A stretch of 64,000 nt of DNA from an uncultured Gemmatimonadales bacterium (GTDB lineage Bacteria > Gemmatimonadota > Gemmatimonadetes > Gemmatimonadales > GWC2-71-9): NCBI GenBank assembly GCA_963798915.1, contig CAWCVB010000006.1:256001-320000 (forward strand), written 5' to 3'. Position numbers and translations under genes: made by a program. The notes under the pieces are model-generated. The model was not told the DNA's origin. It made no database searches and saw only the letters and a program-made list of their open reading frames with translations. Shown here piece after piece: positions 16,841 to 51,313 of the stretch. Numbering within the stretch: position 1 is the stretch's first letter; each line of letters opens with the position of its first letter.

Positions 16841-16861
16841 GGCATCCCCTTCCGGCACGAC

Positions 16862-20150: not shown

Positions 20151-20162
20151 CGTGGTTGCGCT

Positions 20163-20190
20163 AATGTAAAATCCTGCCAGCATTTGCGAA
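20163..20190 (-). promoter_or_regulatory. Putative internal dcw promoter upstream of murC
   Basis: AT-rich gap with TTCGCA-N16-TACATT, 12 nt before ATG 20150. Confidence 0.4.
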
Positions 20191-20196
20191 AGACTA

Positions 20197-30925: not shown

Positions 30926-30938
30926 GGGTCTGGGATCC

Positions 30939-30979
30939 AAAAACAACACCCCGTTCTCTCTGATGGGAACGGGGTGTTG
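30939..30979 (-). terminator. Intrinsic terminator after tRNA-Asp
   Basis: Perfect 13-bp inverted repeat (30944-30956 / 30967-30979) followed by TTTTT on the minus strand. Confidence 0.8.
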
Positions 30980-33277: not shown

Positions 33278-33306
33278 ACGCTAAACACTGTGGCCCGGCT
33301 GGTCAA
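33278..33306 (-). promoter_or_regulatory. Putative sigma70 promoter (near-leaderless)
   Basis: TTGACC-N17-TAGCGT, 9 nt before ATG 33268. Confidence 0.55.
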
Positions 33307-34174
33307 GTTCATCGTCGTCTGGAGGCGCTGGCCAGCCGATATCAAGGGCGGCGCGCCGAGGCCCATCCAGGACCCGGCGGATCCACGAGGCGATGACAAC
33401 CGCCACGGCAACCAGCAACCAGAGGCCGCCCAGCGTCAGCCATCCCAGCACGCCGTAGCGACGGCGCACGTCCCGCTGCCAAGCCACTCCGAACTGGCCC
33501 GGCGTGAGTCCGGTCGTCCGCCGGAGCGCCGTATCGAACGGCTCCCCGGAGGCCAGCAAGGTCAACAATGGCTCCAGCGAGTGCTCCGGGTGACGCCGGG
33601 CCAGGTCCATCACAGCGGTCATGGCCAGTCCATAGGCAAGCGATGCGTCGGCCTCGGTTCCCTGCAGGCCGCGGTTCAGGTTGTCGAGGTCCGGGATGCG
33701 CCCGCGCAGGACGGCGAGGTTGATGCCAACCGCATCCATTCGGCTCCACTCACCAGCCGCGTAGGCGGCGTAGCCTTCGTCGAACCAGCGGGGAACGCTC
33801 GAATGGATGGCGCGGCGCAGCGCCAGGTGCGCCAGCTCGTGTCTCAGCGTGGCTTCCGTCTGGCCCGCGTCGGCGCGGATCAGAATGGTGCGGCTGGATG
33901 GCAGCGCGACACCCGCGCCCCACGACGGTGCACGCCCGCTGGTATAGCGCTGCATGGTCGACTGGTCCGGCACCACGATCAGGCGGATCGGTCCCGGGTC
34001 GCGCCTGCCCAGGCCGGGCCAGGTGTGGACATGATCCGCCTCGTCGCCAAGCTGGAGGGCCAGCGGCATCTCGCGCGCCGTCGCGACCACCGTGACCTGA
34101 CCGACCTGTGCTGCCTGGGGCTGAGGCGGCGCCTGAACGAACGGGCGAAGAGCGATGAGCGCGAGTGCGCTCAG
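33281..34174 (-). CDS. Membrane-anchored gluzincin (peptidase MA-like) metalloprotease; start uncertain (CTG 34174 proposed)
   Basis: HELAH followed by PRWFDEGYA; C-terminal TM; N-terminal hydrophobic stretch starts at a CTGA overlap. Confidence 0.8.
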   Translation of the reverse strand: MSALALIALRPFVQAPPQPQAAQVGQVTVVATAREMPLALQLGDEADHVHTWPGLGRRDPGPIRLIVVPDQSTMQRYTSGRAPSWGAGVALPSSRTILIRADAGQTEATLRHELAHLALRRAIHSSVPRWFDEGYAAYAAGEWSRMDAVGINLAVLRGRIPDLDNLNRGLQGTEADASLAYGLAMTAVMDLARRHPEHSLEPLLTLLASGEPFDTALRRTTGLTPGQFGVAWQRDVRRRYGVLGWLTLGGLWLLVAVAVVIASWIRRVLDGPRRAALDIGWPAPPDDDELDQPGHSV

Positions 34175-35055
34175 GAACGCGCGGAACGCGGGATGGTCCC
34201 TCCGGCAGCGGCGGTGTCCAGCATGTCCTTGCACCGCTTGCCCCACTGATTGAATCGGTTGGCGCGATGGCCCTCGGTCCACGACTCGGTGGCGCCCTCG
34301 CGATCGCCGGAAAGCCACTGCGCGCGTCCCAGCTCGTACCACGCCTCGATCAGGTTGGGTCCCAACTGGAGGGTCTTGCGGAAGAAGGCCTGGGCGTCCT
34401 CGAACATCTCGCGCTCGAGATAGACCAGGCCCAGGTAGTAGTGGGCGTAGAGCGTGGCCTTCCGGTCGTTGTTCAGCCGAATGGCCTTGGAAAGATGTTC
34501 GATGGCTTCGCCGAAGATCCGCTTCTTGAGGCAGATGTACCCGACATTGATCCGGGCCAGCGCATTGGCAGGTTCTGCCATCAGCACCCGCGAGAATGTC
34601 GCCAGCGCCTCGTCATAGCGCTCGTCGAGCATCTCGGCCCAGCCCAGGAGGGACTGCGCCTGCGTGTCACCCGGTGCGAGTTCCAGGGCACGCTCGAGCG
34701 CCTGCACGGCGCCGGCATGGTCCCCCAGCGAAATCAGGCTCCAGCCCTTTTCAATAAACGTCGACGCACCGATATGATCCGAGTGCACCGCGGGCCTGGC
34801 TCCCGAGAACTGCGGTGGTTGTGCCCCATCCTCCGTCGCGCCTGAGGCGACCTGTTTGTAGCGCTCAACCAGCGCGCGGAGGTCGTCCTTCAGCCGGCTG
34901 AGCTCGCCCAGGGCCGCGTCAACCTCTCGGTACAGCGAAATAATGTCGCGCTTGAGGCGCTCGCGAGTGTCCACCCCGCCAGCCTCGCCAAGCCGCGCCT
35001 CCACCTCGCGATAGCGGTCACGATACATCGCGGCCGGGCCAGGTCGATCGGTCAC
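34171..35055 (-). CDS. Coiled-coil plus TPR protein
   Basis: N-terminal heptad helix, then about five TPRs (ALELAPGD, VLMAEPAN, TLQLGPNL). Confidence 0.85.
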   Translation of the reverse strand: MTDRPGPAAMYRDRYREVEARLGEAGGVDTRERLKRDIISLYREVDAALGELSRLKDDLRALVERYKQVASGATEDGAQPPQFSGARPAVHSDHIGASTFIEKGWSLISLGDHAGAVQALERALELAPGDTQAQSLLGWAEMLDERYDEALATFSRVLMAEPANALARINVGYICLKKRIFGEAIEHLSKAIRLNNDRKATLYAHYYLGLVYLEREMFEDAQAFFRKTLQLGPNLIEAWYELGRAQWLSGDREGATESWTEGHRANRFNQWGKRCKDMLDTAAAGGTIPRSARS

Positions 35056-35513
35056 GTTCCGGCCCGCTGCAAGGTGACGCGTTCGTCGCCGCTGAAGAGC
35101 CGACGGGCGTTGAGCAGCACGACGGTCTGCTCTCCGATATGCGCAACCCCGCTGATGTACTCGGCGGCGAGGCCGCGCACCAGCGGCGGCGGCGCCGCAA
35201 TCACTGATGCGTCCACCCGCACGACCTCCCGCACCTGATCGACCACCACGCCAATTCGATCGCGCTCGACTGTGATCACGATGACGCGGGTGTCCTCGCC
35301 CAGCTCCGCCGGTACGTCGAGGCGCTTGCGCAGGTCCACCACCGGAATGACCCCGTCTTCGAAGGGGAGGACACCCTCGAGAAAGGGAGGGGCCTTTGGC
35401 ACGGTCGAGGGCCGCTCGTATCGAAGGATCCGCTCGACCTGCAGGATGTCAAACCCGAAGTCCTGCTCACCGACACGGAAAGTCACCAGTTGCACGTCAT
35501 CGCCGGAGATCAT
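35052..35513 (-). CDS. cheW: Chemotaxis adaptor CheW
   Basis: LVTFRVGEQDFGFDILQVERI, VPKAPPFLEGV, IPVVDLRKRL, IGVVVDQV. Confidence 0.93.
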   Translation of the reverse strand: MISGDDVQLVTFRVGEQDFGFDILQVERILRYERPSTVPKAPPFLEGVLPFEDGVIPVVDLRKRLDVPAELGEDTRVIVITVERDRIGVVVDQVREVVRVDASVIAAPPPLVRGLAAEYISGVAHIGEQTVVLLNARRLFSGDERVTLQRAGT

Positions 35514-35932
35514 AGCCGACCCATTTCAAAGAGGCGCGCGCTCAACGCCGCAAGATCGAGCAGGGGGAGCAATTCCTTGCCATGGCGAACCAACGCCGCC
35601 GCCCACGGTACGGCTCGATCAGGGGGCACGGGTAGCGACTCGCCACGCTGTACGACTTCGGCATCATCGACTTCGAGGCACAGGCGCCTGCCCTCGACAG
35701 TCACCACAATGGCGGTGGAGGCCACGTCGGCAGGACACCGCTGCCCCGCCAGCAATGCCGCCAGATGAACCACGGGCAGGACCGCGCCCCGCATGGTCGC
35801 GACTCCGCGCACCGCCGGCTCGAGGCTGGGGACCGCAGCAACCGCACCCGGCACGGTCACCGCTTCCAGATGCTCCACCGGAAGCCCGATGGCGCGACCG
35901 CCAGCGTGCACCACCAGGAACTGCGTCATCAT
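35510..35932 (-). CDS. cheW: CheW-like adaptor (divergent)
   Basis: [36 protein letters not shown]. Confidence 0.85.
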
Positions 35933-37005
35933 GAAGCCAGGCGGGTGAGACTGGCGTCGAGGACGGCCGCAATCCGCTCCACCGCAAGCACGTAATCCGC
36001 GCCACCGCTCAACCGCGCCGCATTGGGCATGCCATCAATGACAGCGCTGGCCCTGTCCTGCGCAATCCCGATACCGCCCGCGTCATGAATGGCCCGCAAG
36101 CCTGCAGCGCCGTCCCGCCCCAGCCCGGTCAGCACGACGCCAATCGCAGCGGGGCCGAAATACTCCGCCAGCGTGGTGAAGAGCGGATCGGCCGCCGGTC
36201 GCACGCCCCAGACGGTGGGCGACTGATCGAGGGCAATGACCGGACCACCGTCTCCACTGCGCACCAGCATATGGTAGTCGCCCGGCGCCACATACGCCGT
36301 ATCCTCCAGCACCGGGCTTCCCTGCTCGGCTTCGACCACGGTGTAGCGGCTCTGTGTGGCGAGGCGCTCGGCCAGACTGCGCGTGAACTTGGGCGGCATG
36401 TGCTGCACGATCAGGATGGCCGCGTGACGGCCTCGAGTCAGGCGCGGGACGATCTCCGCCAATGCTCGTGGCCCGCCGGTGGAGGCGGCGATGCCCACGG
36501 CACATCGGGCCCGACCGGGCAGGGTGGTCATCGTCGACGGAGGCATCGCCGGTCGTATCGGGCGAGCCAGCATCGGCAGGCGGAGGATCTCAGCTTCGCG
36601 GGCCGCATAGAGGGCCGCAAGCACCCGCCGGCCGAATCGGCCGATGGCCTCCTGGCCTCGGTCCTCGTCCTTCGCGACAAGATCCACTGCACCGAGTTCG
36701 AGCGCTCGAATGGCCGCCGCGGTGCCGGCGCCGGCGTACGCGCTGACGACAACGATGGGCCGGGGCGACTCGGACATGATGTAGCCGATGGCGCCCAATC
36801 CATCGAGTTCCGGCATCTCCAGGTCCATCAGCACGCAGTCGGGTTCGAGGGCATGGACCTTCTCAAGCGCATCCAACCCGTTCCGCGCCGTTCCGCAGAC
36901 CCGGAACGCTTCTGATCCATTGACCACATCGGTCAGCAGCCGCCGAAAAAACGGGCTATCGTCCGCAATGAGGACGCTGGCCGGTTCAGAGTTGCGTGGT
37001 GCCAT
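35929..37005 (-). CDS. cheB: Protein-glutamate methylesterase CheB (REC plus esterase)
   Basis: [37 protein letters not shown]. Confidence 0.96.
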
Positions 37006-37471
37006 GTGACACCGAGGTGATTTCCACCCGGCCATCAGCCGCCCAGACACGCACCGTCCGGCCGTAGTCGCCCCCGACCGCTTCACCGATCAGCGGGATA
37101 CCATGCTGGGCCAGGACCTGGCGCGACGCCACCACGTTCCGTTCCCCCATCTGGATGGTGCCGGGCGCCGTCAATGACGCGAACATGCTCGCACCGCCCA
37201 CCAGGCGACCTCCAACACGCCCGGACCGGGCCCCGAGCGATGCCATCCCGCTGAGCAGCGCCGGCACCGCCTTCTGGGGCACCTTGCCAGGGCGGTCATC
37301 GCTTGGTCGCACGAGCGCCGGCGACGGCAGGAGCACGTGCGCGAGCCCGGCCACGTGGGCCACCGGATCGTACAGGATGATGGCGACACAGCTGCCCAGT
37401 CCGATGGTGACGAGCTCGTCATCGAGTCGGCCCACGCGCAGGTCGGCGACCCGCACCACGATGTCGCTCAT
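36986..37471 (-). CDS. cheD: Chemoreceptor glutamine deamidase CheD
   Basis: [33 protein letters not shown]. Confidence 0.96.
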
Positions 37472-38283
37472 TCCCGCCGCCGGTAGATGCGTTCACGGAT
37501 GTCCACCAGGTCGACCAGCTCACGGGCCGGGCCCAGCAGCGTCTCCACCTTGCCGAGCACCAGGATGCCATGTGGTGCAAGGCGCTCCACGAACAGCGAG
37601 AAGACCTGTTCCTGCAGGGGACGATCGAAGTAGATCACCACGTTCCGGCAAACAATCAGCTGATAGGCGGTGGCCAATGGGGTGGCCCGGCTCAGGTCCA
37701 GCTCTGCTACCGTAACGCGTTCGCGAATGGCAGGAACCACCGCGCGACCTGCCGCGTCAGGCACCGTATACCGATCCTGCAAATCCGCCGGCAGATCCTG
37801 GAACGCCTCCACACGGTAGACGCCCGCCCGCGCGCGCTCCATGGATGCGCGATCGACATCGGTCGCATGAATGGCTGCGCGACTGCTCCACTCCGGCCGG
37901 CCAGCGAGACGGCACTGTTCGGCGAACAGCATTGCCATCGTATACGGTTCATCGCCGGAGGCGCAGCCGGCACTCCACGCCAGCAGTCGCCCGGCATTCG
38001 CCTCCCACAGCGCCGGCAGAAACCGGCCCGCGAGTGCACTCCAGGTCTCGGGATTCCGGTAGAAGCGCGTCACATTGATGGTGAGCGCGTCCTTGAGGCG
38101 ATCCAACTCCTCCGGCTCACGCTCGACCAGCGCCCGATATTCGTCGTAGTCGCGGCTGCCACACGCGCGCATCCGCACCGCCACCCGGCGACGGATGCAC
38201 TTGTCCTTATAGGCATCGAGGGTCATCCCCACGGCTGATGAAACGGACCCAAGCAGCCGGGCGAAGGCCGCGTCGTCGGTCAT
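37468..38283 (-). CDS. cheR: Chemotaxis methyltransferase CheR
   Basis: TINVTRFYRN, WSAGCASGDEPYT, ATDVD, CRNVVIYF, LGKVETL. Confidence 0.96.
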   Translation of the reverse strand: MTDDAAFARLLGSVSSAVGMTLDAYKDKCIRRRVAVRMRACGSRDYDEYRALVEREPEELDRLKDALTINVTRFYRNPETWSALAGRFLPALWEANAGRLLAWSAGCASGDEPYTMAMLFAEQCRLAGRPEWSSRAAIHATDVDRASMERARAGVYRVEAFQDLPADLQDRYTVPDAAGRAVVPAIRERVTVAELDLSRATPLATAYQLIVCRNVVIYFDRPLQEQVFSLFVERLAPHGILVLGKVETLLGPARELVDLVDIRERIYRRRE

Positions 38284-39902
38284 CACGAGGCAGCATCCAG
38301 CATGTCGAGGTTGGCCCGGGCGAGCTGATGCCCCGGATTGAGTTCCGCCGCACGTTGCCAGCAGCTGCGAGCCTGGTCGGTTTCGCGCCGCTTGAAGGCG
38401 ATGTTCCCCAGCTTGAAATAGAGGTCATCGCCGAGCTGGGGATCGAGCTTGGCCGCACGCTCATACATGCTCGCGGCCTCGTCGTAGCGGCCTGAGCGGT
38501 AGCACAAGTCACCCAGGTTCTTGGAAATCTGCGGCACGCCAGGCTCATCGGATAACGCTGCCCGGAGCAGCAGTTCCGCGCCGGCTACATCGCCATCGTG
38601 CTCCAGCATGACGGCGAGGTTGTTGCGCAGGATGGCGCTCGCGGGATGGGTCCGAACCCCTTCCTGGGCCACACTGAGGGCTGCGTCGGCACGATCGGCC
38701 GCGGCTGCAGCAAGCGACTGCGCCCAGTACCAGATCGCCGGCACGATGCCGTCCTTCAGCAACTCACGGGCGCGCGCCAGCCGGCTCTGGGCGGCTTCGG
38801 TGTCGCCGCGCCGCAATGCCAATACGCCCCAGCCCAGCTGGATCCGTGCATCTTCGCGGGCCCGCCCCGCCGCGTCCGCGAACACGCGCTCGGCCTCATC
38901 GAGCTGTCCGAGCTGCTCGAGTGCGATGGCCAGATCATGGAGCACCACCGGCCGGGGGCCGCCCTTCTCCAGGCAGTCGCGGAACGCCTGGGCGGCCTCG
39001 CTCCAGCGCGCCTGCCGCGACGCGATGAGTCCCAGGTGAAAGGGTGCCGCCGCCTCGGCCGGTCGCAGGTCGGCGACGCGCCGAAACTCACGCTCCGCTT
39101 CATCGAGCATTCCGGTCCGAAAGAACGCGACGCCCAGGTTGCGGTGCTCTTCCACCCGCGAGTCACTCGCGCGAGGCGCTGCGGCGGCACGCGACGAACC
39201 GGTGCGATGGGCGAAGCCGGCAGCGAGCAGGCCATAAATGGCCTTGCCGACCTGGAATTCCACCAGGCCGGATTCCTCCATGACCTGCTGCACATCACGG
39301 GTGCCGTCGAGAAGCGGCACGATCCGTTCCTGCTCGGCGCTGAGCGTCACATCGCTGTCGGCCACTCGCGATGGGTCAGCACTGAAGATGAGATCGAAGG
39401 TGGGAATCTTCTTCGCGATGAGACTCCACTCATCCACCCGTCGTGCCCCCTCGAGCAGGAGGCTCTCGGGATTGATGGAGACCAGGACATCCTGTTCCTC
39501 CGGACGCTCACCGGCCTCGAAGTTGAAGGTGCCGCTGCTCCAGGTGAACAGGAAATACACCGCTTCCTCGATTTGCAGCGCCACGAACTCCCGAAGCGCG
39601 TCCGGCGTGATGGCGCCGAGTTCGAGCAGTATCTGGCCAATGCGACGTTCCGGGCTGGCCGCCTGCTGGTCGATGGCTTGCTGCAGCACGTCCGCTGAGA
39701 GCCTGCCGTTGCGGACCAGCAGGTCCCCAAGCCGGTCACGCCGATTGACGATCGAGGCGAAGACGATGCGGCCGTCCTCGAAGTAGATGTAGCCGAAGTT
39801 CTGCCGGTCAGCCACGGCCAGGCAGCCGGAGCGTCGACCCAGCGCGAGCAGCTGGATGACATCCGGAAGACTCGCCTCGGACAGGCTTCCCTTGATGGCC
39901 AT
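38283..39902 (-). CDS. DUF4388 (PATAN-like) protein with MshEN-like motifs, wHTH-like segment and TPRs
   Basis: KGSLSEASLPDVIQLL...SGCL...IYFEDGRIVFA, tandem RLG/RIG 24-mers, WSSGTFNF, LLLEGARRVDEW, then TPRs. Confidence 0.85.
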   Translation of the reverse strand: MAIKGSLSEASLPDVIQLLALGRRSGCLAVADRQNFGYIYFEDGRIVFASIVNRRDRLGDLLVRNGRLSADVLQQAIDQQAASPERRIGQILLELGAITPDALREFVALQIEEAVYFLFTWSSGTFNFEAGERPEEQDVLVSINPESLLLEGARRVDEWSLIAKKIPTFDLIFSADPSRVADSDVTLSAEQERIVPLLDGTRDVQQVMEESGLVEFQVGKAIYGLLAAGFAHRTGSSRAAAAPRASDSRVEEHRNLGVAFFRTGMLDEAEREFRRVADLRPAEAAAPFHLGLIASRQARWSEAAQAFRDCLEKGGPRPVVLHDLAIALEQLGQLDEAERVFADAAGRAREDARIQLGWGVLALRRGDTEAAQSRLARARELLKDGIVPAIWYWAQSLAAAAADRADAALSVAQEGVRTHPASAILRNNLAVMLEHDGDVAGAELLLRAALSDEPGVPQISKNLGDLCYRSGRYDEAASMYERAAKLDPQLGDDLYFKLGNIAFKRRETDQARSCWQRAAELNPGHQLARANLDMLDAAS

Positions 39903-41875
39903 CAGCGCCAGTCCTCGATCAACCGTGACGCGGGATCAGGCCAGTCCCCGATCATCTTCTCGCGATTCTGGGCAATCCCGGCCCCGCCATGGACCACGCC
40001 GCTGGATCGCACCATGGTCGAGCGGCGGCTGGATCCGCGTGTGCTCCCTCCCTCCAGCGCTTCGCGCGCAAGCAGCGCCGTCGGAGGCACACCGCGACTC
40101 TCAGCTGCGTGCAGCACCCGCTGCACCAGCCCCAGCGTGCTGCGCATCGAGTCGGCGGGGCGAGCCGCCACATAGGCCGCCAGTTCCGGATCCACCGCGT
40201 CGAGCTTGGCAGCCAGCAGACGTTCGACAGCGCGCTGCCTGAGCTCCCGGTCGGGTGAAGGCAGGTCAGCCACCAGCCCTCCCTCGAAGCGCGTCAGCAG
40301 GCGTGGTTCGATCCCGGACAGGTGGGCCGGCTGCACCCCGGCTGAAAAGACCATCTGACGGCCCTGCTCCTGGAATTCGTTGAACAACAGGAAGAGCTCT
40401 TCCTGGGACCGCTCCTTCCCTGCAAGGAACTGGATGTCATCCAGCAGCAGGGCATCGGCCCGCCGCCACCGGGCGCGCCAGCGCGGAACCGATTCCTGCT
40501 CGATGGCCGCGATCAATTCGTCCACGAACACCTGTGTGCTGGCGCACGCAACCCGCCGGCCACCCGCCGCGATCGCGTTGCCAACAGCATGCAAGAAGTG
40601 GGTCTTGCCATTCCCGCTCGGGCCGGCGATAACCAGCGGATTGTAGCGGGTGCCCGGTTCCTCGATGATGGCGCGAGCTGCCTGTACCGCCATGCGATTG
40701 CCCTGGCCCTCGAGGAAGGTGTCCAGGTTCCAGTGCGGGGAGGGCCCGGGTGGCGGCTCAGCCGCAGCCGCGGCGCGCTCCCGCAGCGCTTCCGCTGCCG
40801 CCAGCTGGTCCGGATTGCGGAGCACGGCGTCGCTGGCCAGGTCCGGTGCGAGATCCGCAACGTCGGCGTGGAGCACCCTGAGCCGTGCGACGTCACGTTC
40901 GAACGCAGCCAGTTCGGACGCCGGGTCCTCGGCCAGTTCCTGGTCGAGCAGCGCCGCCAGCCGGTCAACTCGATAGCCCTCTCCTTCCCAACGCAGCATC
41001 GCCTCGCCTATCCGGCGGCGCCATGACTCAACCTGCTCGGTGACCGTGGCCATGACGTCCTGAAGGAAGTCGGTGAACTCGTCTACCGGACCGGCGCCGA
41101 ACATCTCTCCGGCGACCGCGGGTACCGGCGCGCGCACAGGGCGCCGACCTGCGCTGCTCAGCTGCGCCGACGCCTCGCGGGCTTCCTCCGCGGTGATGGG
41201 AGCATCGCTCACGGCCTGCATCGCCGCGACGCGGTTCAGCGCGCCGAGCAGCTCGCGAACGCTCTCCGGCTCTGGCTCGGCGATGCCCTCCAGCACCGCG
41301 GCGGCCAGCTCCAACTGGCGCTGACCGGCGCGACGATGGAGGATCGCGACGCGCGTCTCGTAGTCGGGTATCCCGATGTCCACGACCAGTCCGCCCCCCA
41401 GCCGCCGCGCCAGGCGTTCATCCAGCGAGGGGATGTCGCCGGGCGGTCGGTCGCTGGCCAGGACCAGCTGGCGGCCGGCGGCGGCCATGGCATCGGTCAC
41501 CCGCAGGAGTTCGGCCTGCATTTCCCTCCGCCCGGCGAGGAACTGCACGTCGTCGAGCAGGAGCAGGTTCACTTCAAGCAATCGCCGGCGGTAGGCATCC
41601 CCACCACCGGACGCGATGGCCGCATGGAACGCCTCCAGGAACTCGTCGAGGGTCAGGTACTCCACCACCAGCTGGGCATTGATGGCGCGCGCGGCGTGGC
41701 CGATGGCGCCAAGGAGATGCGTCTTGCCGAGGCCGGGGCGCGCGTAGACGAACAGGGGGTTGTAGACCGCGCCGGGCGACTCGGCCACGGCGCGTGCCGC
41801 TGTGACGGCGAGCCGGTTCGCGCTGCCGACGACCAGCTCCTCGAACCGGAACTGCGGGGGAAGCTCGGCTGTCAT
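39902..41875 (-). CDS. Protein of two DnaA-type AAA+ domains (no DnaA domain I or IV)
   Basis: Two copies of N-R-x-A...YNPL...GxGKTH...LLLDD[VI]QFLAG...R[LF]xGGLV...[VM]R. Confidence 0.9.
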
Positions 41876-42474
41876 CCCACGGCGCTTCCGGCTGCCAGCC
41901 GCCGCAAGACCTGCTCGGATATTCCCTTGAGCGTCTCGAACACCCCGCTGCCGTGAAGTGCGTCCGCCGGATAGCTGAGCACGTCGCGAAAATTCAGGGC
42001 TTCGTCCAGCGCCTCGCGAGACAGCACGAGGTCGGCCGGCAGATCCTGCTTGTTGTATTGCAGCACGACCGGCAGCGCCCGGATGTCCACGCCCTGCTCC
42101 AGGAGATTCTCCTGAAGGTTCTGCAGGCTCTCGAGGTTCTCGTCGAAGCGCGCAGCCTGGCTGTCCGCGACGAAGACCACACCGTCCGAGCCCTGCAGCA
42201 CCAGCTTTCTGGTGGAGTTGTAATAGGTCTGGCCCGGCACCGTGTAGAGCTGGAACCGGGTGGTAAAACCGCTGATCGAGCCAAGATCGATCGGGAGAAA
42301 GTCGAAGAAGAGGGTGCGATCGCCGTGGGTGGCAAGCGACACCATGCGCCCCCGCCGCCCCTCAGGCACCCGACCGAAGACGTACTGCAGGTTGGTCGTC
42401 TTGCCGGACCGTCCCGGTCCGTAATAGACAATCTTGCAGGTGATTTCGCGGGTCGTAAAATTGACGAGCGACAT
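41872..42474 (-). CDS. mglA: MglA-family small GTPase
   Basis: [52 protein letters not shown]. Confidence 0.96.
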
Positions 42475-42476
42475 GA

Positions 42477-42938
42477 TCAGCGTCCGAACAGCGCGTGCAG
42501 GCTGGCGTTGAGGTCATGTTCAAAATTTTCCGCCAGCACCGGTCCCTGGGGCGTCTCACGGGGCGCGGCGGCGGCGAGTTCCCGACAAAGGCGGCCGAAG
42601 AAGAGCTGCACCAGCCCGACACTGGTGTCATCACCGAATACGACGAGCCCGATCCAGCGTCCGCGCGGAGTGTCGAAAGCGGAGATGAACAGTCCATGCT
42701 CGGTGCCCTGGTGCACCAGTGCGCCAAAACCCGGCTCGCCCATGAGCCGCGCCACTTCAGACGTGGAGGCGACAATGCCGGCTCCGAGGGCCGACGCCGC
42801 CATGACATCGAGCGAGCGCGAAAAACCGTGTTGTGCCACCACCTGGCCCGCGGAGGTCATGAGCAGCACCAGTCGGGCCGAGGACTCGGACAGAAATGCG
42901 TCGAGCGGCTCTGCAACCCAGGGTTCGAGCGTGCGCAT
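42477..42938 (-). CDS. mglB: MglB-family roadblock protein (MglA GAP)
   Basis: ATG 42938 (TGATG); [47 protein letters not shown]-terminal helix; adjacent to mglA. Confidence 0.88.
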
Positions 42939-43285
42939 CAGCCGAGGCCTCGCGCTACCTCGAGCATCTCCAACCGCGCGAGGCCCAGGTTGGCATCGCG
43001 TGACGTCACCGCCACCACCAGGATCTCGGCGCCAGCCGGCACCGCCAGCACGGAGCCGAATTCGGCGCGAAGGTGCACCAGCTCCGGAGCCGGCATGCCG
43101 GCGGCCCGCGTGGCTCGGCCCAGCCGCCCGACGAGGCTCGACGCCAGTGCGGCGATGGCCTGGCCGTCTATGCCGTCCATGAGGGAGTCGGCGACGACCA
43201 GCCCGTCGGGCGCGGAGACGAGCATCGCGCCTCGCACGCCGCGGATCCCGCTCACTCGATCGAGGGTCGCGGTGAGGTCGTTCAC
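42938..43285 (-). CDS. Roadblock/LC7 protein (MglC-like paralogue)
   Basis: GTG 43285 (GTGA); IRGVRGAMLVSAPDGLVV, AIAALA, ANLGLARLEM. Confidence 0.85.
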   Translation of the reverse strand: MNDLTATLDRVSGIRGVRGAMLVSAPDGLVVADSLMDGIDGQAIAALASSLVGRLGRATRAAGMPAPELVHLRAEFGSVLAVPAGAEILVVAVTSRDANLGLARLEMLEVARGLG

Positions 43286-44142
43286 GGCAATCGCTCCAGC
43301 CATCGACGCGCGGCTGCGGCTGCCCGTTCGGCGATGACCGCGAGCCGTCCGGCGGGCACGCTGGCATCGCGCTTCAGCAGCAGGACAGTCGAGTCCGATG
43401 GGGCGCTGAGATGAAGATTGCCGCTCCCGCATTCGGCCACGACGCTCTGCCACGCCCCGAGGCCCAGCAGCCGGGCGGTGCGCGCCGCCTCACGCTGCAC
43501 CCCTGCCAGATGCGCGGCCACCGCATCGCTCACGTCATGATTGGCGACGTCCCGAAGCCCGCCGCCCAGCCGCAGACCGCTCTGGTCCAGCAGGAGCAGT
43601 CCGTCCTGTGCACCGTCGAAGCCCTTGAAGAGCTCGTCCTCCGCGACGTGGCCGGCCGTCGGGGAATCGTCCTCCTCCAGTGAGAAGGGCACCGACGCCT
43701 GTTGGGTGGCCACCGTCGGCGTGCTGGCACCCGCCTCTTTCTGCGCCATGGCATCGCGCACCCGCTCGATGGCGCGGTCGAGTCCGGCCGACCCATGCTG
43801 CTCATGCGCCAGCTCCAGGTGCCGCAGCGCCCTCGGCAGATCATCGGCCCGGAAATACAGGAAGCCGAGTCCCTTGTGGGCGCCGAGATGCCCGGGATCG
43901 CTCTGCAAGGCATCCATCCATGCGTCGAACGCCGCTTCGCCATTGCCCAGATCGCTGTGGATGCGCGCAAGCAGGTCGTGCGCATCGGCCAGTGCTGGAT
44001 AGCGCTGGACACCCGCCACGGCCACCTTGAGCGCTGCAGCCGCCTGGCCGCGACGCCGGAGAGCCTCGCCCAATTCGAGGAAGATCAGGCTGCCGGGATC
44101 GGACGCCAGTTCGGCAGTCATGGCCCGCACTTCGTCAGCCAT
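43282..44142 (-). CDS. TPR-roadblock fusion protein
   Basis: DPGSLIFLELGEALRRRG TPRs, acidic linker, then roadblock-like GLLLLDQSGL...VAAHLAG...PAGRL. Confidence 0.8.
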   Translation of the reverse strand: MADEVRAMTAELASDPGSLIFLELGEALRRRGQAAAALKVAVAGVQRYPALADAHDLLARIHSDLGNGEAAFDAWMDALQSDPGHLGAHKGLGFLYFRADDLPRALRHLELAHEQHGSAGLDRAIERVRDAMAQKEAGASTPTVATQQASVPFSLEEDDSPTAGHVAEDELFKGFDGAQDGLLLLDQSGLRLGGGLRDVANHDVSDAVAAHLAGVQREAARTARLLGLGAWQSVVAECGSGNLHLSAPSDSTVLLLKRDASVPAGRLAVIAERAAAAARRWLERLP

Positions 44143-45289
44143 GTACCATCCTCGTCGCCTGGCTCAGCAGCCTGGCAGCCTCGCGCATCCTGTTCACCCA
44201 GCCCCCTTGCGCATCTTCATCGGGTGGACGCGCCGGCAGCCTGCTCCATGCGTCCCACGTCTCAATCGCCTCCTCGAAACGGCCATCTCCCGCCAAGGCC
44301 ACACCCAGCAGCCGTCTCGCGGCGGCGTCGGCCGGATCCAGGTCGGCCGCCTGGCGAAAAATGTCCACCGCATCCATGGGCCGCCCGAGTGCCAGCAGGG
44401 CCCGCCCGTGCATCACCAACGTTGCCACCTGCACGCCAGGGGAAGCCTGCCTGGCCTCTTCCACCGCCGCGAGCGCGGCTCGGGCATTGCCGGCGATCAG
44501 ATAGGCGTCGGCTCGCGCCAGCAGTTCGGCGATCTCGCCGCCGACCGCGTCCGGCACCTTTCCCTGTTGCGGATCCTGAAGCAGGATGACTCCTGCCGTG
44601 GCAAGGCCAAACAACGTCCGGGCCACGTCGAAGTCGGACCGGCGAACGGCAGCTGCGAGGTCGCGCACGTTCCGGGTTCCATCCACCGCCGCGAGTACTT
44701 CCCATTCCGCCGGATGGAGATCCATCGGTCCAGCATCGCCTCCCTCAGGCACGACGAGAGAGGGCACCACGTCGAGATGCGGGATCCTGGATTCGATCCG
44801 GCTCCACTCGTCGATGCGGCGTGCGGCTTCCATGAGCAGCGCTTCCGTCGGGATGCGCACCGTCGCCTGCGCCGGCACCGCCTCAAGCGGTGCTTCTGAG
44901 AATGAGAAATACCCCTCGGACCAGCCCATCAGCTCAAAAATGACTTCTTCGACCTGCACCCGCATCTGCCGCTCCAACTCGCGACGCGTGATGGCACCGA
45001 TCTCGACCAGCACGTCTCCGAGGCGCCGTTCATCCCCTGCCTGCTGCATGTCACGTGCGCGATGCAGGTCGGCTTCGGCCAGCTTCCCCATCCGGACCAG
45101 CACCCGTCCCAAGGGGTGGGGATTGCTCTGAATCTCCGCCGCAACGACAGCACCCTTGTCGAAGTAGACCGTCCCGCCATTCTGGCGAAGCTCGGATGTG
45201 ACGCGCAGCATGCCGGTCTTGCGGGCCAGGTCAAGCAGCTGGAACACATCGTGGATCCCGAGCTCGCGCAGCGGGCCTTCAATTGGCAT
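44135..45289 (-). CDS. Second DUF4388 protein with MshEN-like motifs and TPRs
   Basis: EGPLRELGIHDVFQLL...TGML...VYFDKG, PLG/RLG 24-mers, WSEGYFSF, LLMEAARRIDEW. Confidence 0.85.
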   Translation of the reverse strand: MPIEGPLRELGIHDVFQLLDLARKTGMLRVTSELRQNGGTVYFDKGAVVAAEIQSNPHPLGRVLVRMGKLAEADLHRARDMQQAGDERRLGDVLVEIGAITRRELERQMRVQVEEVIFELMGWSEGYFSFSEAPLEAVPAQATVRIPTEALLMEAARRIDEWSRIESRIPHLDVVPSLVVPEGGDAGPMDLHPAEWEVLAAVDGTRNVRDLAAAVRRSDFDVARTLFGLATAGVILLQDPQQGKVPDAVGGEIAELLARADAYLIAGNARAALAAVEEARQASPGVQVATLVMHGRALLALGRPMDAVDIFRQAADLDPADAAARRLLGVALAGDGRFEEAIETWDAWSRLPARPPDEDAQGGWVNRMREAARLLSQATRMVHG

Positions 45290-47975
45290 GGTCAGCGCCT
45301 CCCGCGGTCAGGATATGCTGGAGGTCACGGGCGGATCGCGCCCGGCTCCGCGCAATCGTGGCCAGCTCGGTGGAGGGCCCGAGCTGCACCACGCGCTCCC
45401 ACGCATCCACCGCAGCCGTGAACTGTCGTTCCCGCGCCAACGCGACGCCGCGATAGAAGAGCGCCTCCGTTTGCTCGGGCAGGAAACGAAGGATGCGGGC
45501 AAACGCCTCCAGCCCTTGAGCCGTCCGGCCATCATCGAGGAGGGCCCGCCCCAGCAGCAGCAATGCGTCAAATTCGTAGGGGTCCGCCGAGAGCATGTCG
45601 ACCAGCAGGGCCACGGCGGCCCTGGGCGATTCGGTGCGCCGCGCGAGGTCGGCCCGCCCCAGGGCCGCAACGGTGAACGTTGGCAGCAGATCCAATGCGC
45701 GGCCATAGGCGGCGTTCGCTGCCGTCCAGTTCTCGCGCTGCTCTTCCAAACGGGCCAGCTCCAGCCATACCTGCACCAGTCCCGCATCGACACGGAGGGC
45801 TAACCGGCATGCGTCGAGCGCAGCATCCACGTCACCCAGCTGAGAGCAGATGACAGCCTGCAGCTGGTAGAGTTCCGGTTGACCAGGCGAGACCGCCAGC
45901 GCACTGCGAACGGCCTGCAACGCGCCCTCGAGGTCGTCGCCCGCGAGCCGGGCCTTGCCGAGGGCCGTGAGCACTTCCCCGTCGTCGGCTCGGGCACGCG
46001 CGAGCGACTCCGCAACCGGAATCGCCTCTGCGCCGCGTCCGAGCGCCACCAGCGCACGGACCTCACCCAGCGTTGCGCGCCAATCGTCCAGCCGGACCGA
46101 GCGTGCCTGGCGAAACTGCTCCAGTGCTTCGCCGTGGAGGCCCCGGCGCGCATGGATTTCACCCAGCAAGGCGGCCACGGCGCCGGCGTCGGCGCCTCGA
46201 GCGCGGGCGCGGCCCACCTCGGCATTGGCCAACTCGAGCAATCCCTTGGTCGCGTAGTCCCGCGCCAAGGCAAGTGGATCCTCCTCGGCCGCCAGCTCGG
46301 GTTCGTACGGGACGGTGGTCGTCAATTCGGCGAACAGGTTATCCAGGGTGCCCGACTCGAAATCGAACTCGCCCGCGAGCAATTCCCCACCCACATCGCT
46401 GGTGAGTGGGGGCGCAATGGCAATCGTCGGGTCTTCGTACTGGAGGTCGAGCGCCAGCGTGTACTTCTGGGGGACATAGAACGGCTCCAGCTCGAGCGCG
46501 CGCTTGGTCTCGCGCAGCGCACCGTCGAAATCCCCAAGCTGGCTCATCGTAAAGCTCAGGTTGTAGTGCGCTGACGCCAGCGAATCCTCAGCTTCCACCG
46601 CACGTTGAAACGCCGTGCGGGCTTCGCCATACCGCTTCAGTTCCATCAGGACCAGTCCGACGCCATTCCATGCGATGGCGTTGCGCGGCTCCTCGGCCAG
46701 GGCCGAGCGATAACCTTCCAAGGCGGGCTGCAACTCATGCCGCTGGAAGTGGAGCAATGCCAGATTGAGCCGCACCGTAATGGGAACGTGCGGGCCCCGT
46801 GCGGCGCGCCGGAAGGTTGCGAGCGTCGCCTCCGCGGCCGGATCCTGAGCACGCAGCACGCCGAGATTGTTCCACGCGATCACATAGTCGGGATCGAGGT
46901 CGACGGCACGAAGATACGAAGCCTCAGCGACGTCGCGGTGGCCCAGCTGCTGCAGGCAGACGCCACGCTCGGACCACAGCTTGGGTGACTCGGGAAACTC
47001 GTTCACGAGCTGGTCGTAGAGCTGCAGCGCCGCTGCGAGTTCTCGCCGAAGCAGCTCCACCTCGGCCATGGCCTGCAAGGCGAGGCGCCGATCCTCGCCG
47101 GCATCCAGCGCCAGCCGGTACTCGCGCAGGGCCTCGCTGAAATAGCCCTTCTGGCGAAAGGCCAGGCCGAGATTGAAGTGCGCCAGCGCGGCGTCGGTCA
47201 CCGGTTGCGGCACCGCGCGCGCCTGGCCGCCCGCGCCGTTTCCGCTCGCCCCGTTGCGCTGCAACATGAGGTTGGTCTGCGCGCGCGCCAGCGCCGGATT
47301 CAATTCAATGGCCCGCTTGGCCGCCTGCCGCGCCAGGCCATGCTGGCCCATGTCGCCGTGGACGAAGGCGAGCAGGTAGTGCGCGTCAGCATACTCCGGA
47401 TTCCGGGCCACGGCGCCCTGGAGGGCAGCCAGGGCCGGCTCGTTCAATCCGCGGTTGTAAAGCGTCTCGCCGTAATAGAACAGGGCCACCGAACTGTCGG
47501 GATCGCGGCGACACGCCTCGGCGAACCATTCGGTGGCCTCCTCGACCCGACCCCGCGCCCGCTCGCTGAGCCCCAGTTGCACCAGCACGGCCACATCGTG
47601 CGGGTGCCGCGCGAGCAGCGCCTGAAACTCGTCGGCAGCAGCATCATGCTGGCCCAGCGAGGCGTAGGCGCGGCCGAGCTCCCAGCGCGCGTCTCGCTCG
47701 TCTGGATTGTTCCGGAGGCGACCCTGCAGTTCGGCGACCCGATGGTCGTAATGGCCACTGTCGCGATAGGCAATTTCGAGATTGGTCTGCGCGATGGTCA
47801 TGCGCGAGTCCAGCTCGAGCGCCCGCTGGAAGGCCGCCACCGCTTCGGGAATCAGTCCTTTGTGGTAGTAGAGCACGCCGAGGTTGTTGTGCGCCCCGGC
47901 ATCGGCGGGATCGATGCGCCGCGCGAACGACCGCAGTGCCGACAGGTCGTGTTCGGACAGTACGGGCGCAGGCAT
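45279..47975 (-). CDS. Large cytoplasmic multi-TPR protein (898 aa)
   Basis: Many canonical TPRs (AHNNLGVLY, AHFNLGLAF, AWNNLGVL, AWNGVGLVL, AHYNLSF); no signal peptide or catalytic domain seen. Confidence 0.9.
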   Translation of the reverse strand: MPAPVLSEHDLSALRSFARRIDPADAGAHNNLGVLYYHKGLIPEAVAAFQRALELDSRMTIAQTNLEIAYRDSGHYDHRVAELQGRLRNNPDERDARWELGRAYASLGQHDAAADEFQALLARHPHDVAVLVQLGLSERARGRVEEATEWFAEACRRDPDSSVALFYYGETLYNRGLNEPALAALQGAVARNPEYADAHYLLAFVHGDMGQHGLARQAAKRAIELNPALARAQTNLMLQRNGASGNGAGGQARAVPQPVTDAALAHFNLGLAFRQKGYFSEALREYRLALDAGEDRRLALQAMAEVELLRRELAAALQLYDQLVNEFPESPKLWSERGVCLQQLGHRDVAEASYLRAVDLDPDYVIAWNNLGVLRAQDPAAEATLATFRRAARGPHVPITVRLNLALLHFQRHELQPALEGYRSALAEEPRNAIAWNGVGLVLMELKRYGEARTAFQRAVEAEDSLASAHYNLSFTMSQLGDFDGALRETKRALELEPFYVPQKYTLALDLQYEDPTIAIAPPLTSDVGGELLAGEFDFESGTLDNLFAELTTTVPYEPELAAEEDPLALARDYATKGLLELANAEVGRARARGADAGAVAALLGEIHARRGLHGEALEQFRQARSVRLDDWRATLGEVRALVALGRGAEAIPVAESLARARADDGEVLTALGKARLAGDDLEGALQAVRSALAVSPGQPELYQLQAVICSQLGDVDAALDACRLALRVDAGLVQVWLELARLEEQRENWTAANAAYGRALDLLPTFTVAALGRADLARRTESPRAAVALLVDMLSADPYEFDALLLLGRALLDDGRTAQGLEAFARILRFLPEQTEALFYRGVALARERQFTAAVDAWERVVQLGPSTELATIARSRARSARDLQHILTAGGADHAN

Positions 47976-47984
47976 CTCGACGTC

Positions 47985-48605
47985 CTACGGCAGGCGGATA
48001 GCGTCGAAAATGGCGCGGAGCGAAGGCATGTCCGGCAGGAGGAGGAAGTGCCCGTTGAGGCGCTCGCGCTCCTTCCCGACCTGGAAGGAGGTTTCGACGC
48101 AGAAGACGAACTCGCGTTCCTGGCCAAAATTCAGATAGGTGCTGGTGATGACCGCGGCGCTCTGGTCCACCACCAGGCCCGGCACCGACGGGACCAGCAT
48201 CATGCCCATGAAGTCACTCAGCGCATTCAGGTAGGCGCTGACCAGGATGTTGCCAACCTCCTTGAGGCCGCTCTGCTCCATTTCATGGAATTTGGTGGTG
48301 GCGCCTTCCGCACGGTTGAACAGGATGTCACACAAGCGGCGCGCGGCGTCGTCCGGAAACAGGATGAGCGTCCGGCCCGTGAGGTCACCCATCATCTGCA
48401 TCAGCACGGCGGCCACCACGGCATCGGGAGCGCCGAGCAGGTCGGCCACCTCCTCGAGGGGCCGAACGTTGACCTCCGGTACGCTGATCATGATCGTGCG
48501 GTTGGTCATCTGCGAGAGCGCCGTCGCGGCGTGACCCGCCCCGATGTTGGCAACCTCGCGCAGCGCATCCAGCTGCAGATCCTTGAGCCCGCGGGCGTCT
48601 TCCAT
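47985..48605 (-). CDS. cheC: CheY-P phosphatase CheC
   Basis: DALREVANIGAGHAATALS and SGLKEVGNIL (two ExxN sites). Confidence 0.95.
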   Translation of the reverse strand: MEDARGLKDLQLDALREVANIGAGHAATALSQMTNRTIMISVPEVNVRPLEEVADLLGAPDAVVAAVLMQMMGDLTGRTLILFPDDAARRLCDILFNRAEGATTKFHEMEQSGLKEVGNILVSAYLNALSDFMGMMLVPSVPGLVVDQSAAVITSTYLNFGQEREFVFCVETSFQVGKERERLNGHFLLLPDMPSLRAIFDAIRLP

Positions 48606-48617
48606 GCGGTCCTCGAG

Positions 48618-50459: not shown

Positions 50460-50463
50460 GGCG

Positions 50464-50826
50464 TCAGCCGAGGACGCGCTGTACGGCCTCGAGGACGCGG
50501 GACGGTTGAAATGGCTTGACCACAAAATCCTTGGCGCCGGCCTGGATCGCCTCCACCACGAGCGCCTGCTGCCCCATGGCGCTGCACATCAGGATCTTGG
50601 CGTCGGGGTCAACCTTGCAGATGGCCCGCACCGCGTCAATTCCACCCATGTCCGGCATGACGATATCCATCGTGACCAGGTCCGGCTTGAGCTGATGGTA
50701 CTTGTCCACCGCCTGCACGCCGCTCTCGGCTTCGCCGACAACCTCGAAGCCCGCCTGGGTCAGGATGTCGCTGATCATGGTACGCATGAAGATGGCATCA
50801 TCGCAGACCAGCACAGTATGACCCAC
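50464..50826 (-). CDS. cheY: Response regulator CheY (Bacillus/Thermotoga-like)
   Basis: VCDDAIFMR, MDIVMP, CSAMGQQALV, FVVKPF. Confidence 0.95.
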   Translation of the reverse strand: MGHTVLVCDDAIFMRTMISDILTQAGFEVVGEAESGVQAVDKYHQLKPDLVTMDIVMPDMGGIDAVRAICKVDPDAKILMCSAMGQQALVVEAIQAGAKDFVVKPFQPSRVLEAVQRVLG

Positions 50827-50857
50827 GCACCACCTCCGTAACGGTCAGATATCTGCG

Positions 50858-51313
50858 TCAGCTCGACGCCACGCGCTCGGATGACAGGACCGGACCGCAC
50901 AGCGCGTCCAGATCAAGAATGACGAAGTGCTCGCCTTCATGCCGCGCGACGGCCCGGACCATCACTGGATCGACGCCTGGCAACTGTTCTCGTGCGGCGA
51001 CTGACGACTCCGGGAGGGAAAAGAAGTCTCGCACCTCACCAACCTCGAGCCCGATCAGTCGCCCCACGACCTGCACGACCAGGATGGCGCCCTCGTCGCC
51101 CTCGCCACGGGGCTGCTGCAGCAACCGGTGCGCGTCCAGCACGGTCAGCAGGCCTCCCCGTACATTGACGAGGCCCGAAACCGCTGATGCCACCCCCGGG
51201 ATCCTCGTTGCCTGAAGGCTCGGGAGGATCTCCCGCACAATCCCTGCCGAGGCCCCGCAAATCAGGGTCCCGACTCGAAACACGACGGCGTGCAATACCG
51301 GAGAGTCAGGCAT
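50858..51313 (-). CDS. cheW: Chemotaxis adaptor CheW
   Basis: VREIL, TRIPGV...GLVNVRGGLLTVLD, IGLEVGEV, ILDL; ATG 51313 overlaps the rluD end. Confidence 0.9.
   Translation of the reverse strand: MPDSPVLHAVVFRVGTLICGASAGIVREILPSLQATRIPGVASAVSGLVNVRGGLLTVLDAHRLLQQPRGEGDEGAILVVQVVGRLIGLEVGEVRDFFSLPESSVAAREQLPGVDPVMVRAVARHEGEHFVILDLDALCGPVLSSERVASS

Follow-up and report, generated by a model that had tools for sequence, protein, structure and literature searches.

A tandem DnaA-type AAA+ protein lacking DnaA domains I and IV, encoded directly behind mglA in a chemosensory operon of Gemmatimonadota

What does a protein built from two copies of the DnaA ATPase module do when its gene lies directly behind mglA in a chemosensory operon? 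The gene in question is found in a 64,000-nucleotide stretch (referred to here as the window) of contig CAWCVB010000006.1 from an uncultured Gemmatimonadales bacterium (assembly GCA_963798915.1, positions 256,001 to 320,000), and its coordinates are collected with those of its neighbours in Table 1. To our knowledge, DnaA-type AAA+ modules have been described only in the firing of origins and its control by Hda, in helicase loading and in the helpers of transposition, all of which act on DNA, and the effectors of MglA/MglB/PATAN systems outside Myxococcus are, so far as we are aware, largely unknown. An original prediction, made from this DNA without database searches, had described two DnaA-type AAA+ domains without a DNA-binding domain, and had proposed either an Hda-like regulator of replication initiation or a repurposed filament or scaffold ATPase. 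The answer that we favor, holding belief and doubt in even balance, is that this Gemmatimonadota-specific protein has no role in replication and serves as an ATP-gated oligomeric switch or scaffold in a polarity module of MglA/MglB and PATAN-TPR proteins (TPR, tetratricopeptide repeat) that is under chemosensory control. A full-text search of the literature, which did not extend to subscription journals, turned up no publication on the Gemmatimonadota tandem protein or on any DnaA-like protein with a link to MglA, PATAN or che genes.

Whether the gene is simply a dnaA can be decided from what the protein contains and what it lacks. The Pfam family Bac_DnaA matches it in two stretches (E 1.2e-91, 305.6 bits), as had been expected of a HMMER search, and its two halves align to one another with 36% identity (E 5e-34). 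DnaA_N, the Pfam family for domain I, does not match it, nor does Bac_DnaA_C, the helix-turn-helix (HTH) of domain IV, at E≤0.01, and on both points the prediction was correct; the control proteins P0204 and P0211 do show both families. The N-terminus of the tandem protein corresponds to DnaA residue ~111. Lacking domains I and IV, the protein is not a canonical replicative DnaA; this conclusion is supported, and agrees with what had been predicted. The DnaA equivalog model of NCBIfam, TIGR00362, does pass, at 441.6 bits against a cutoff of 343.9, although this score is summed over two partial stretches and the alignment ends at model position 341 of 437, short of domain IV; the pass is an artefact of the duplication, because the scores of the two domains add up. 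No other DnaA-like gene is present in the 64,000 nt of the window.

Each half corresponds closely to DnaA domain III. Searches of solved structures with phmmer align residues 5–260 with DnaA chain 8btg_A (E 1.1e-50) and residues 379–595 with domain III of Thermotoga DnaA, 2z4r_A (E 4.2e-36), and the top Foldseek match is 8bv3_A, domain III of Bacillus subtilis DnaA (TMt 0.91, 42% identity), followed by 2z4r, 3r8f, 1l8q and 2hcb. With these B. subtilis, Thermotoga and Aquifex (1l8q, 2hcb, 3r8f) structures both halves share the AAA+ fold with its lid, Walker A and Walker B, the box VII arginines and sensor II, and domain A shares the sensor I triad SDR as well. The tandem protein departs from DnaA in having two copies per chain, in lacking domain I, a domain II-type linker and the HTH of domain IV, in its additional helical middle domain and C-terminal peptide motif, and in the placement of its gene, which is in a che-mglA operon and is not shown near dnaN or an origin. 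Type II double-ring AAA+ proteins (p97, NSF, Rix7) were considered and rejected: p97 and Rix7 span both domains only at an rmsd of 18.6–28.2 Å (TMq 0.26–0.30, 13–17% identity), and each domain alone matches DnaA far better. A known defence protein was rejected likewise, PADLOC giving only weak matches at the level of the P-loop (DrmD, E 6.8e-06; mad8, E 3.3e-04), with no stretch passing.

The motifs quoted in the original prediction are all present, at residues 38–53, 104–113, 140–145 (ASDRPP), 153–163 and 205–213 (SVRELLGAL) in the first half, and at residues 411–426, 476–484 (LLLDDIQFL), 511–516 (SAGVQP), 524–534, 576–578 (SMR) and 643–657 in the second half and the tail. A family alignment of 26 sequences (A1), on which our statements of invariance, our regional identities and the AlphaFold2 (AF2) model are based, shows how strictly they are kept. 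In domain A the Walker A sequence GLGKTH, the Walker B residues D108 and D109, the sensor I residues S141, D142 and R143, the box VII arginines R154 and R158 and the sensor II arginine R207 are invariant; in domain B the invariant residues are G421, G423, K424, T425 and H426 of Walker A, D479 and D480 of Walker B, R525 and R529 of box VII, and S576 and R578, the latter being the sensor II arginine. Domain B has AGV in place of the SDR of sensor I, so that the predicted replacement of the sensor I aspartate is true for the window protein. The other departure that had been pointed out, an alanine for the first glycine of Walker A in domain A, is also there, but it is not a defect, because it fits the classical P-loop pattern [AG]xxxxGK[ST] and the position varies between A, S and G in relatives.

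The whole-protein AF2 model (mean pLDDT 82.4) contains two confident AAA+-plus-lid units, at residues 1–242 and about 376–608. In each modelled core two helices lie between the second and third strands (in domain A, between strands 71–75 and 104–108), which is consistent with the initiator-specific motif of the DnaA clade, an insertion that makes proteins of this clade assemble open spirals and not flat rings. Mean pairwise identity within A1 is 0.71 in domain A, 0.17 in the spacer that follows it, 0.59 in the middle domain, 0.62 in domain B and 0.70 in the tail motif, which is thus conserved to the same degree as domain A. Set against the columns of canonical DnaA, domain A has replaced the column-120 arginine and the F-H-T-F-N helix and keeps SDR, whereas domain B keeps R471, K487 and F..LFN and has lost SDR; judged from these columns, the pattern is one of complementary degeneration.

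These residues bear on the possibility that the protein is a positioning ATPase bound to DNA or the nucleoid, assembling on DNA in its ATP-bound state and using the chromosome as a matrix on which to place or segregate the chemosensory array or an MglA complex. Such a role would have a parallel in the ParA-type ATPases of some che operons, PpfA of Rhodobacter and ParC of Vibrio, which position arrays, and an ATPase of unclear role inside a che operon fits that precedent. The fold and motifs are those of a DNA-binding initiator clade, including the two-helix insertion in both domains, and domain B keeps the DnaA-type helix F..LFN; moreover, the residue aligned to K222 of B. subtilis DnaA, which we take to function in the binding of single-stranded DNA, is basic in both domains, being an invariant R116 in domain A and K487, at least 90% conserved, in domain B. 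By contrast, the residue aligned to I190, presumably a hydrophobic contact to single-stranded DNA, is H84, which varies between H, T, G, N and A in relatives, the pore helix of domain A is remodelled, and Pfam finds neither domain IV nor any other recognisable DNA-binding domain. We therefore regard a positioning ATPase of this kind as unlikely.

The region of ~133 aa between the two AAA+ units is partly disordered and variable (residues 243–264) and partly confidently helical (residues 265–372). The helical part has ten invariant residues in A1 (D265, E266, F267, F270, L271, W285, W296, G298, E299 and G300), and it folds with confidence when modelled alone (AF2 pLDDT 87.6, pTM 0.70). It matches no Pfam family at cutoff (best E 0.0043, in the whole-protein search), has no fold match in the PDB at E≤0.001 (best 3.2, Foldseek) and no usable match in the ESM Atlas, and is specific to this family, as is the C-terminal motif. 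At the other end of domain B, the model has a pLDDT below 50 over residues 610–646 and a short helix at 648–656, and the chain ends in the motif REKM.W.WP....R.IEEWR, of which E639, K640, W645, P646, E654 and R657 are invariant in A1. Beyond that alignment, 26 of 37 diverse family members have WP among their final 30 residues, and 20 have W.WP. Some chemoreceptors end in a CheR/CheB-docking pentapeptide of the type xWxxF; we considered this as the identity of the tail and rejected it, since the tail is of the form W-x-W-P...EEWR, and the two are alike only in layout, a tether followed by an aromatic C-terminal peptide.

The tandem protein has many relatives, and they come almost entirely from one phylum. 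At least 120 full-length relatives (645–680 aa, 58–76% identity, 100% coverage) came from a first protein search, nearly all of the named ones being from Gemmatimonadota/Gemmatimonadales and called 'DnaA/Hda family protein' or 'DnaA ATPase domain-containing protein'. When 1.84 billion cluster representatives were searched exhaustively with HMMER, 19,008 proteins matched at E≤0.001, and among the best 150 of these are many full-length relatives matched in a single stretch, with identities down to 32–38%. Searches from the divergent members P0170 and P0157 again gave names only from Gemmatimonadota, including Gemmatimonadaceae, and Gemmatimonadota is the commonest phylum in all six of the full-length (590–663 aa) ESM Atlas clusters listed, which have 64–151 members each. 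We note that one relative (P0071, 61% identity) is labelled Bacillota and that another (locus L003, 75% identity), with the same gene order, is titled Candidatus Limnocylindria; these labels probably reflect mis-binned contigs of metagenome-assembled genomes (MAGs), and not gene transfer. One source names many of the relatives 'chromosomal replication initiator protein DnaA', and this naming is likely to be a systematic misannotation within Gemmatimonadota.

That automatic annotation calls the relatives DnaA, and that TIGR00362 passes only by summing two domains, might suggest an assembly or annotation artefact, or a functionless duplicate of dnaA in decay. Such an origin is refuted by the at least 120 full-length relatives on independent contigs, by 16 syntenic loci, and by the invariance in A1 of the catalytic residues and the family tail, and we give it virtually no credence. 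The composition is likewise ordinary, with a third-position GC (GC3) of 0.82 and a codon-position GC typical of real genes in the window. The fusion of the two domains, as predicted, is real.

The second body of evidence is the operon. The tandem gene is the eleventh in a conserved reverse-strand operon of 18 genes, in the order CheW, CheY, CheA, CheC, TPR (898 aa), PATAN-TPR, TPR-Roadblock, Roadblock, MglB, MglA, tandem AAA+, PATAN-TPR, CheR, CheD, CheB, CheW, CheW and TPR (294 aa); it thus includes CheA, CheY, CheR, CheB, CheC, CheD and three CheW genes, together with three Roadblock-domain genes, two PATAN-TPR genes and three further TPR genes. On both sides the tandem gene is joined to its neighbour by overlapping codons. 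The mglA stop and the tandem start share four nucleotides in ATGA at the junction GGATGACAG, the overlap that had been predicted and that is read here directly, and the tandem stop overlaps the ATG of the next gene, PATAN-TPR, by one nucleotide in TGATG at the junction CGCTGATGG. The MglA protein closely matches solved structures (E 5.7e-70 to 5ymx_A and 2.7e-67 to 3t12_A) and is 79–96% identical across related loci. Its MglB-like neighbour matches MglB 6h5b_B at E 2.5e-10, with Pfam Robl_LC7 and NCBIfam MglB both below cutoff, and the two genes are adjacent in all loci with flanking sequence.

A genome scan yielded 52 loci, 16 of which (L001–L016) hold the tandem family; the remaining 36 hold ordinary dnaA genes from other phyla and serve only as outgroups. 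The scan used peptide patterns of the window sub-lineage, and Gemmatimonadaceae-type relatives (P0157, P0399 and similar) and Gemmatimonas aurantiaca lie outside the locus set. All 16 family loci are Gemmatimonadota MAGs by title, with the sole exception of L003, and in tblastn searches with the window operon proteins their gene order is identical as far as the flanks reach. In 14 of 14 loci that can be assessed, mglA is the gene immediately upstream of the tandem gene (the sequences of L012 and L016 start within the tandem gene), and PATAN-TPR follows it immediately in 14 of 14 (those of L001 and L014 break off within the tandem gene). Three findings had been named beforehand as grounds for abandoning the original prediction, namely a C-terminal HTH, homologues unlinked to mglA and a fusion arising from misassembly; the HTH is absent, the mglA linkage holds in every assessable locus, and the fusion recurs throughout the family.

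This arrangement can be compared with those tabulated by Wuichet and Sogaard-Andersen (2014, PMC4316618). Rows of their Table S2 give MglB>MglA>PATAN or its mirror image, with no gene between, in Chloroflexus, Herpetosiphon and Roseiflexus, and MglA>PATAN, also with no gene between, in Aquificae. The MglA/MglB modules with PATAN neighbours (Myxococcus, Thermus, Chloroflexi and Aquificae) share with our loci a true MglA and MglB beside PATAN genes, an arrangement that the table gives for many phyla; the family loci differ from the Chloroflexi and Aquificae rows, where PATAN follows MglA directly, in having the tandem AAA+ gene inserted between the two and the whole module inside a che operon. 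The row for G. aurantiaca GAU_1409 reads 'PATAN>MglA>-PATAN>', apparently with one unclassified gene in the slot of the tandem AAA+ gene, and we infer that this gene is a member of the family. Han et al. (bioRxiv 10.1101/2021.06.11.447907) report binding of PATAN domains to PilB1 and PilC, pilus motor proteins of Synechocystis, and note that genes for MglA/MglB homologues are often found near those for PATAN proteins.

How the two domains came together, and what has happened to them since, is indicated by a quick IQ-TREE phylogeny, with SH-aLRT support only, of 106 selected domain sequences, taken from the tandem family (37 proteins), from DnaA-type proteins with a single domain (26) and from tandem proteins outside the family (3). 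The first domains of the 37 family members all fall into a single clade (SH-aLRT 95), and their second domains lie without exception on one side of a branch (SH-aLRT 87), with sub-clades congruent with those of the first domains; because each set of domains groups together with matching sub-clades, the tree points to a single ancient duplication or fusion, after which the two domains diverged together. A table of motifs in the 37 proteins shows that basal, Gemmatimonadaceae-type members keep the sensor I SDR and RLRSRFEGGL in both domains. Sensor I is lost in the window sub-lineage in domain B only, and since the basal relatives retain SDR in both domains this loss is a derived trait of one sub-lineage. 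Elsewhere the decay is mosaic, some members losing the box VII arginines or Walker residues of domain A and others the sensor I of domain B. The domain-A box VII arginines have been lost in several divergent lineages (P0128, P0131, P0152, P0158, P0170, P0188 and P0146), all of which keep the tail motif (in P0188 as the variant WSWH).

Tandem proteins outside the family arose separately. P0208 and the giant proteins P0187 and P0222 duplicated independently of it (SH-aLRT 98 and 92), the latter because their first and second domains group together (SH-aLRT 92). We also observed that P0208 (673 aa) is a DnaA with a duplicated domain III in which the Bac_DnaA_C HTH is kept, and that P0195 (490 aa) has a DnaA AAA+ domain followed by zinc ribbons in place of domain IV; from these architectures, DnaA domain III has been rearranged several times.

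The profile scores, the operon and the pattern of losses together allow the Hda-like alternative to be weighed. According to this explanation, one or both AAA+ modules dock on the DnaA-ATP oligomer, where an arginine finger triggers or blocks hydrolysis and so couples initiation to the chemosensory or MglA state. Hda and HdaA are likewise DnaA-type AAA+ proteins without a DNA-binding domain, both tandem domains match the Hda model TIGR03420, domain A is 41–42% identical to B. subtilis DnaA domain III and keeps R154, R158 and sensor II, an arginine that could serve as a finger is present in each domain (R158 and R529), and the operon lies directly upstream of the division and cell wall (dcw) cluster, from mraW to ftsZ, a placement that is conserved where the flanks reach. 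However, TIGR03420 gives only 169.2 bits over the two stretches against a cutoff of 194.8, the related models NF006571 (62.1 against 297) and NF005982 (58.4 against 268) are further below theirs, and the dcw adjacency may simply be inherited synteny. Hda is a single domain of ~230 aa with an N-terminal clamp-binding motif. The tandem protein differs from it in architecture and genomic context, and a beta-clamp motif of the Hda type (QL[SP]LPL) is absent throughout, as predicted, when sought with four variants of a regular expression based on the pattern given in the original prediction. There is no DnaA domain I, the column-120 arginine and F-H-T-F-N helix of domain A are replaced, the seven lineages named above have lost the domain-A box VII arginines, on which an Hda-like action would depend, while keeping the tail motif or a variant of it, and the tightest coupling is to mglA and PATAN-TPR, not to replication genes. 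An Hda-like function thus seems to us quite improbable. Of the two functions originally offered, a repurposed scaffold or switch ATPase is the one that we favor, because of the che-MglA/MglB-PATAN-TPR operon, the sub-cutoff Hda score, the missing clamp motif and the lineages without domain-A arginines.

A relationship to the helper ATPases extends only to the clade. IstB, DnaC and DnaI belong to the same AAA+ clade and are ATP-gated assembly factors, not unfoldases, and Pfam IstB_IS21 matches both halves of the tandem protein (60.5 bits); the specific models, in contrast, all fall below cutoff (NF038214 for the IS21 helper, 92.9 against 200; DnaI, 43.3 against 228; DnaC, 29.9 against 357), and no transposase or helicase genes are found among the neighbours of the gene.

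The downstream neighbour suggests a further input to the module. Residues 57–110 of the downstream PATAN-TPR protein (39573–39734, reverse strand) match NF053729, 'cyclic di-GMP-binding domain, MshE-related', with 48.5 bits against a cutoff of 38, and its two 24-residue halves fit the published MshEN motif (PMC5013675). The upstream PATAN-TPR protein scores 36.4 bits, just under the cutoff; we observe that the helical insertion of both PATAN domains resembles the tandem MshE-type motif for binding cyclic di-GMP (c-di-GMP). In the giant proteins P0187 (1990 aa) and P0222 (1876 aa), MshEN stands at the N-terminus and is followed by two DnaA-type AAA+ domains, with ~1300 aa of A/E-rich helical repeats between the two, and the chain ends in an E-rich tail; the PATAN insertion of the downstream PATAN-TPR protein aligns to the N-terminus of P0187 (E 5e-09). 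The giant proteins share with the system described here two DnaA-type heads on a helical spacer and an MshE-type c-di-GMP module; they differ in their independent duplication, in their ~1300 aa A/E-rich spacer and in that the c-di-GMP domain is part of the same chain, where in our operon it belongs to the product of a neighbouring gene. Because the MshEN fusion in one lineage matches adjacency in another, there is a hint that the tandem AAA+ protein and the c-di-GMP-motif protein work together, and the fused forms may point to a wider, unrecognised class of signalling ATPases with two DnaA heads on a helical spacer.

We also modelled the tandem protein with its upstream neighbour. One complex prediction was made, with the tandem protein (alignment A1), MglA (alignment A2), GTP and Mg, and it scored 0.40, 0.38 and 0.40, the best of three controls scoring 0.00; at least 59% of the contacts are shared between runs, and the partner pLDDT is at least 80. 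By a calibration whose counts are only rough here, owing to the use of our own alignments and a riding ligand, 116 of 157 solved complexes and 2 of 215 mismatched pairs attain the pass mark; those that attain it with a score of no more than 0.60 comprise only 18 of the 157 solved complexes and both of the passing mismatches. The prediction gives weak support to binding of MglA-GTP by the tandem protein and raises its odds a little.

We conclude from sequence that the tandem protein belongs to the DnaA/Hda AAA+ family, as a member uncharacterised in the searchable literature, and from comparative genomics and modelling we propose how the switch or scaffold might operate. Binding of ATP would lead to a head-to-tail association of AAA+ modules mediated by arginine fingers, either by the pairing of A with B in the same chain or by the joining of separate chains into an open spiral of the DnaA kind, and this would create a nucleotide-gated platform. 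In the window lineage domain A would be a fully equipped hydrolytic site; domain B would bind ATP and, with its arginine finger kept, would act as a slow regulatory site because sensor I is lost. The platform would engage MglA, and the middle domain and the tethered W-x-W-P...EEWR peptide may engage the neighbouring PATAN-TPR or TPR proteins, possibly under the control of c-di-GMP. By homology to MglA/MglB and PATAN systems, the module would most likely steer a type IV pilus or surface motility, and the protein would have no part at the origin. A more far-reaching version, in which the tandem ATPase binds both MglA-GTP and the c-di-GMP-sensing PATAN-TPR protein, so that one chemosensory-controlled complex combines the states of ATP, GTP and c-di-GMP in setting the polarity of the motility machinery and a DnaA-type module has been removed from replication, strikes us as doubtful.

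Several observations weigh against the switch or scaffold that we favor. Its functional evidence is mainly gene order across the family, and a DNA-free role would be a departure, because all characterised relatives of this AAA+ clade known to us (DnaA, Hda, DnaC/DnaI and IstB) act on DNA or on DnaA. The arrangement of domains A and B is undefined, since the pTM of the whole-protein model is only 0.49, and by its calibration a pass such as that with MglA would more often be wrong than right unless binding is already likely. The W-x-W-P motif of the tail is missing in 5 of the 37 sampled members (P0157, P0388, P0389, P0206 and P0174), and the middle region of basal members differs. Among 15 orthologues of the downstream PATAN-TPR protein searched with a regular expression, the MshE-type motif is present in both halves in four, in one half in seven and in neither in four. 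Finally, no pilus genes are present in the window, and the proposed pilus output is thus argued from homology alone; a scan of 54 open reading frame (ORF) translations from the window, which was not exhaustive, found no domain of methyl-accepting chemotaxis proteins.

The remaining features of the region are listed with the others in Table 1. The operon is flanked on one side by rluD and on the other by a Peptidase_MA gene, a TPR gene and then the dcw cluster; the order rluD, operon, Peptidase_MA, TPR and mraW reaches mraW in L005 and L007 and is seen in part in L006, L013 and L015. The Peptidase_MA-type protein weakly resembles flagellinolysin, scoring 34.3 bits where the cutoff is 205. We note also that the longest ORF of the middle Roadblock gene (42938–43453, reverse strand) overlaps the 3′ end of the TPR-Roadblock gene (43282–44142, reverse strand) by 172 nt; its true start is probably further downstream, because alignments to distant loci begin only at ORF residues 30–60.

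Table 1. Features of the tandem AAA+ locus, in window coordinates
Feature	Coordinates	Strand	Basis and remarks
Tandem DnaA-type AAA+ gene	39902..41875	-	657 aa + stop; ORF translation, Pfam Bac_DnaA in two stretches
Domain A (residues 1–240), complete DnaA domain III-like AAA+ with lid	41156..41875	-	A1, phmmer, Foldseek
Disordered variable spacer (residues 243–264)	41084..41149	-	pLDDT <50, variable length in A1
Family-specific helical middle domain (residues 265–372)	40760..41083	-	A1 conservation, AF2
Domain B (residues 376–612), second DnaA-type AAA+	40040..40750	-	Motifs, phmmer to 2z4r_A
C-terminal tail (residues 613–657), low-confidence R/S-rich tether, then conserved motif	39905..40039	-	Motif at 39905–39964
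mglA, 200 aa	41872..42474	-	Stop overlaps start of tandem AAA+ gene
mglB-like Roadblock gene, about 153 aa	42477..42938	-	Start is the ATG abutting the preceding stop
Downstream PATAN(DUF4388)-TPR gene	38283..39902	-	DUF4388 E 3.1e-38 and TPRs (Pfam)
Upstream PATAN-TPR gene	44135–45289	-	Pfam
Conserved 18-gene operon	34171..51361	-	Pfam; same order in related loci
Three CheW genes	50858–51361, 35510–35932, 35052–35513	-	Two extra CheW confirmed by Pfam
Peptidase_MA-type HExxH protein	33281–34342	-	Directly after operon; position conserved in related loci
dcw cluster (mraW, ftsI, murE, murF, mraY, murD, ftsW, murG, murC, ftsQ, ftsA, ftsZ)	15638–30949	-	Complete; just downstream of che-mgl operon

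For the annotation of these genomes there is a practical consequence, as calls of the origin and of dnaA in Gemmatimonadota can be misled, because many members of the family are named DnaA and TIGR00362 passes by the summing of two domains. If the more far-reaching version given above is true, no DnaA-family protein before this one would have been known to act in cell polarity independently of DNA. A duplicated module found across a phylum, devoid of DNA-recognition domains and translationally coupled to mglA, would widen the known uses of this ATPase clade. It would also provide a new and testable component for MglA/MglB/PATAN systems, and would be of interest both for work on bacterial polarity and for the evolution of AAA+ proteins.

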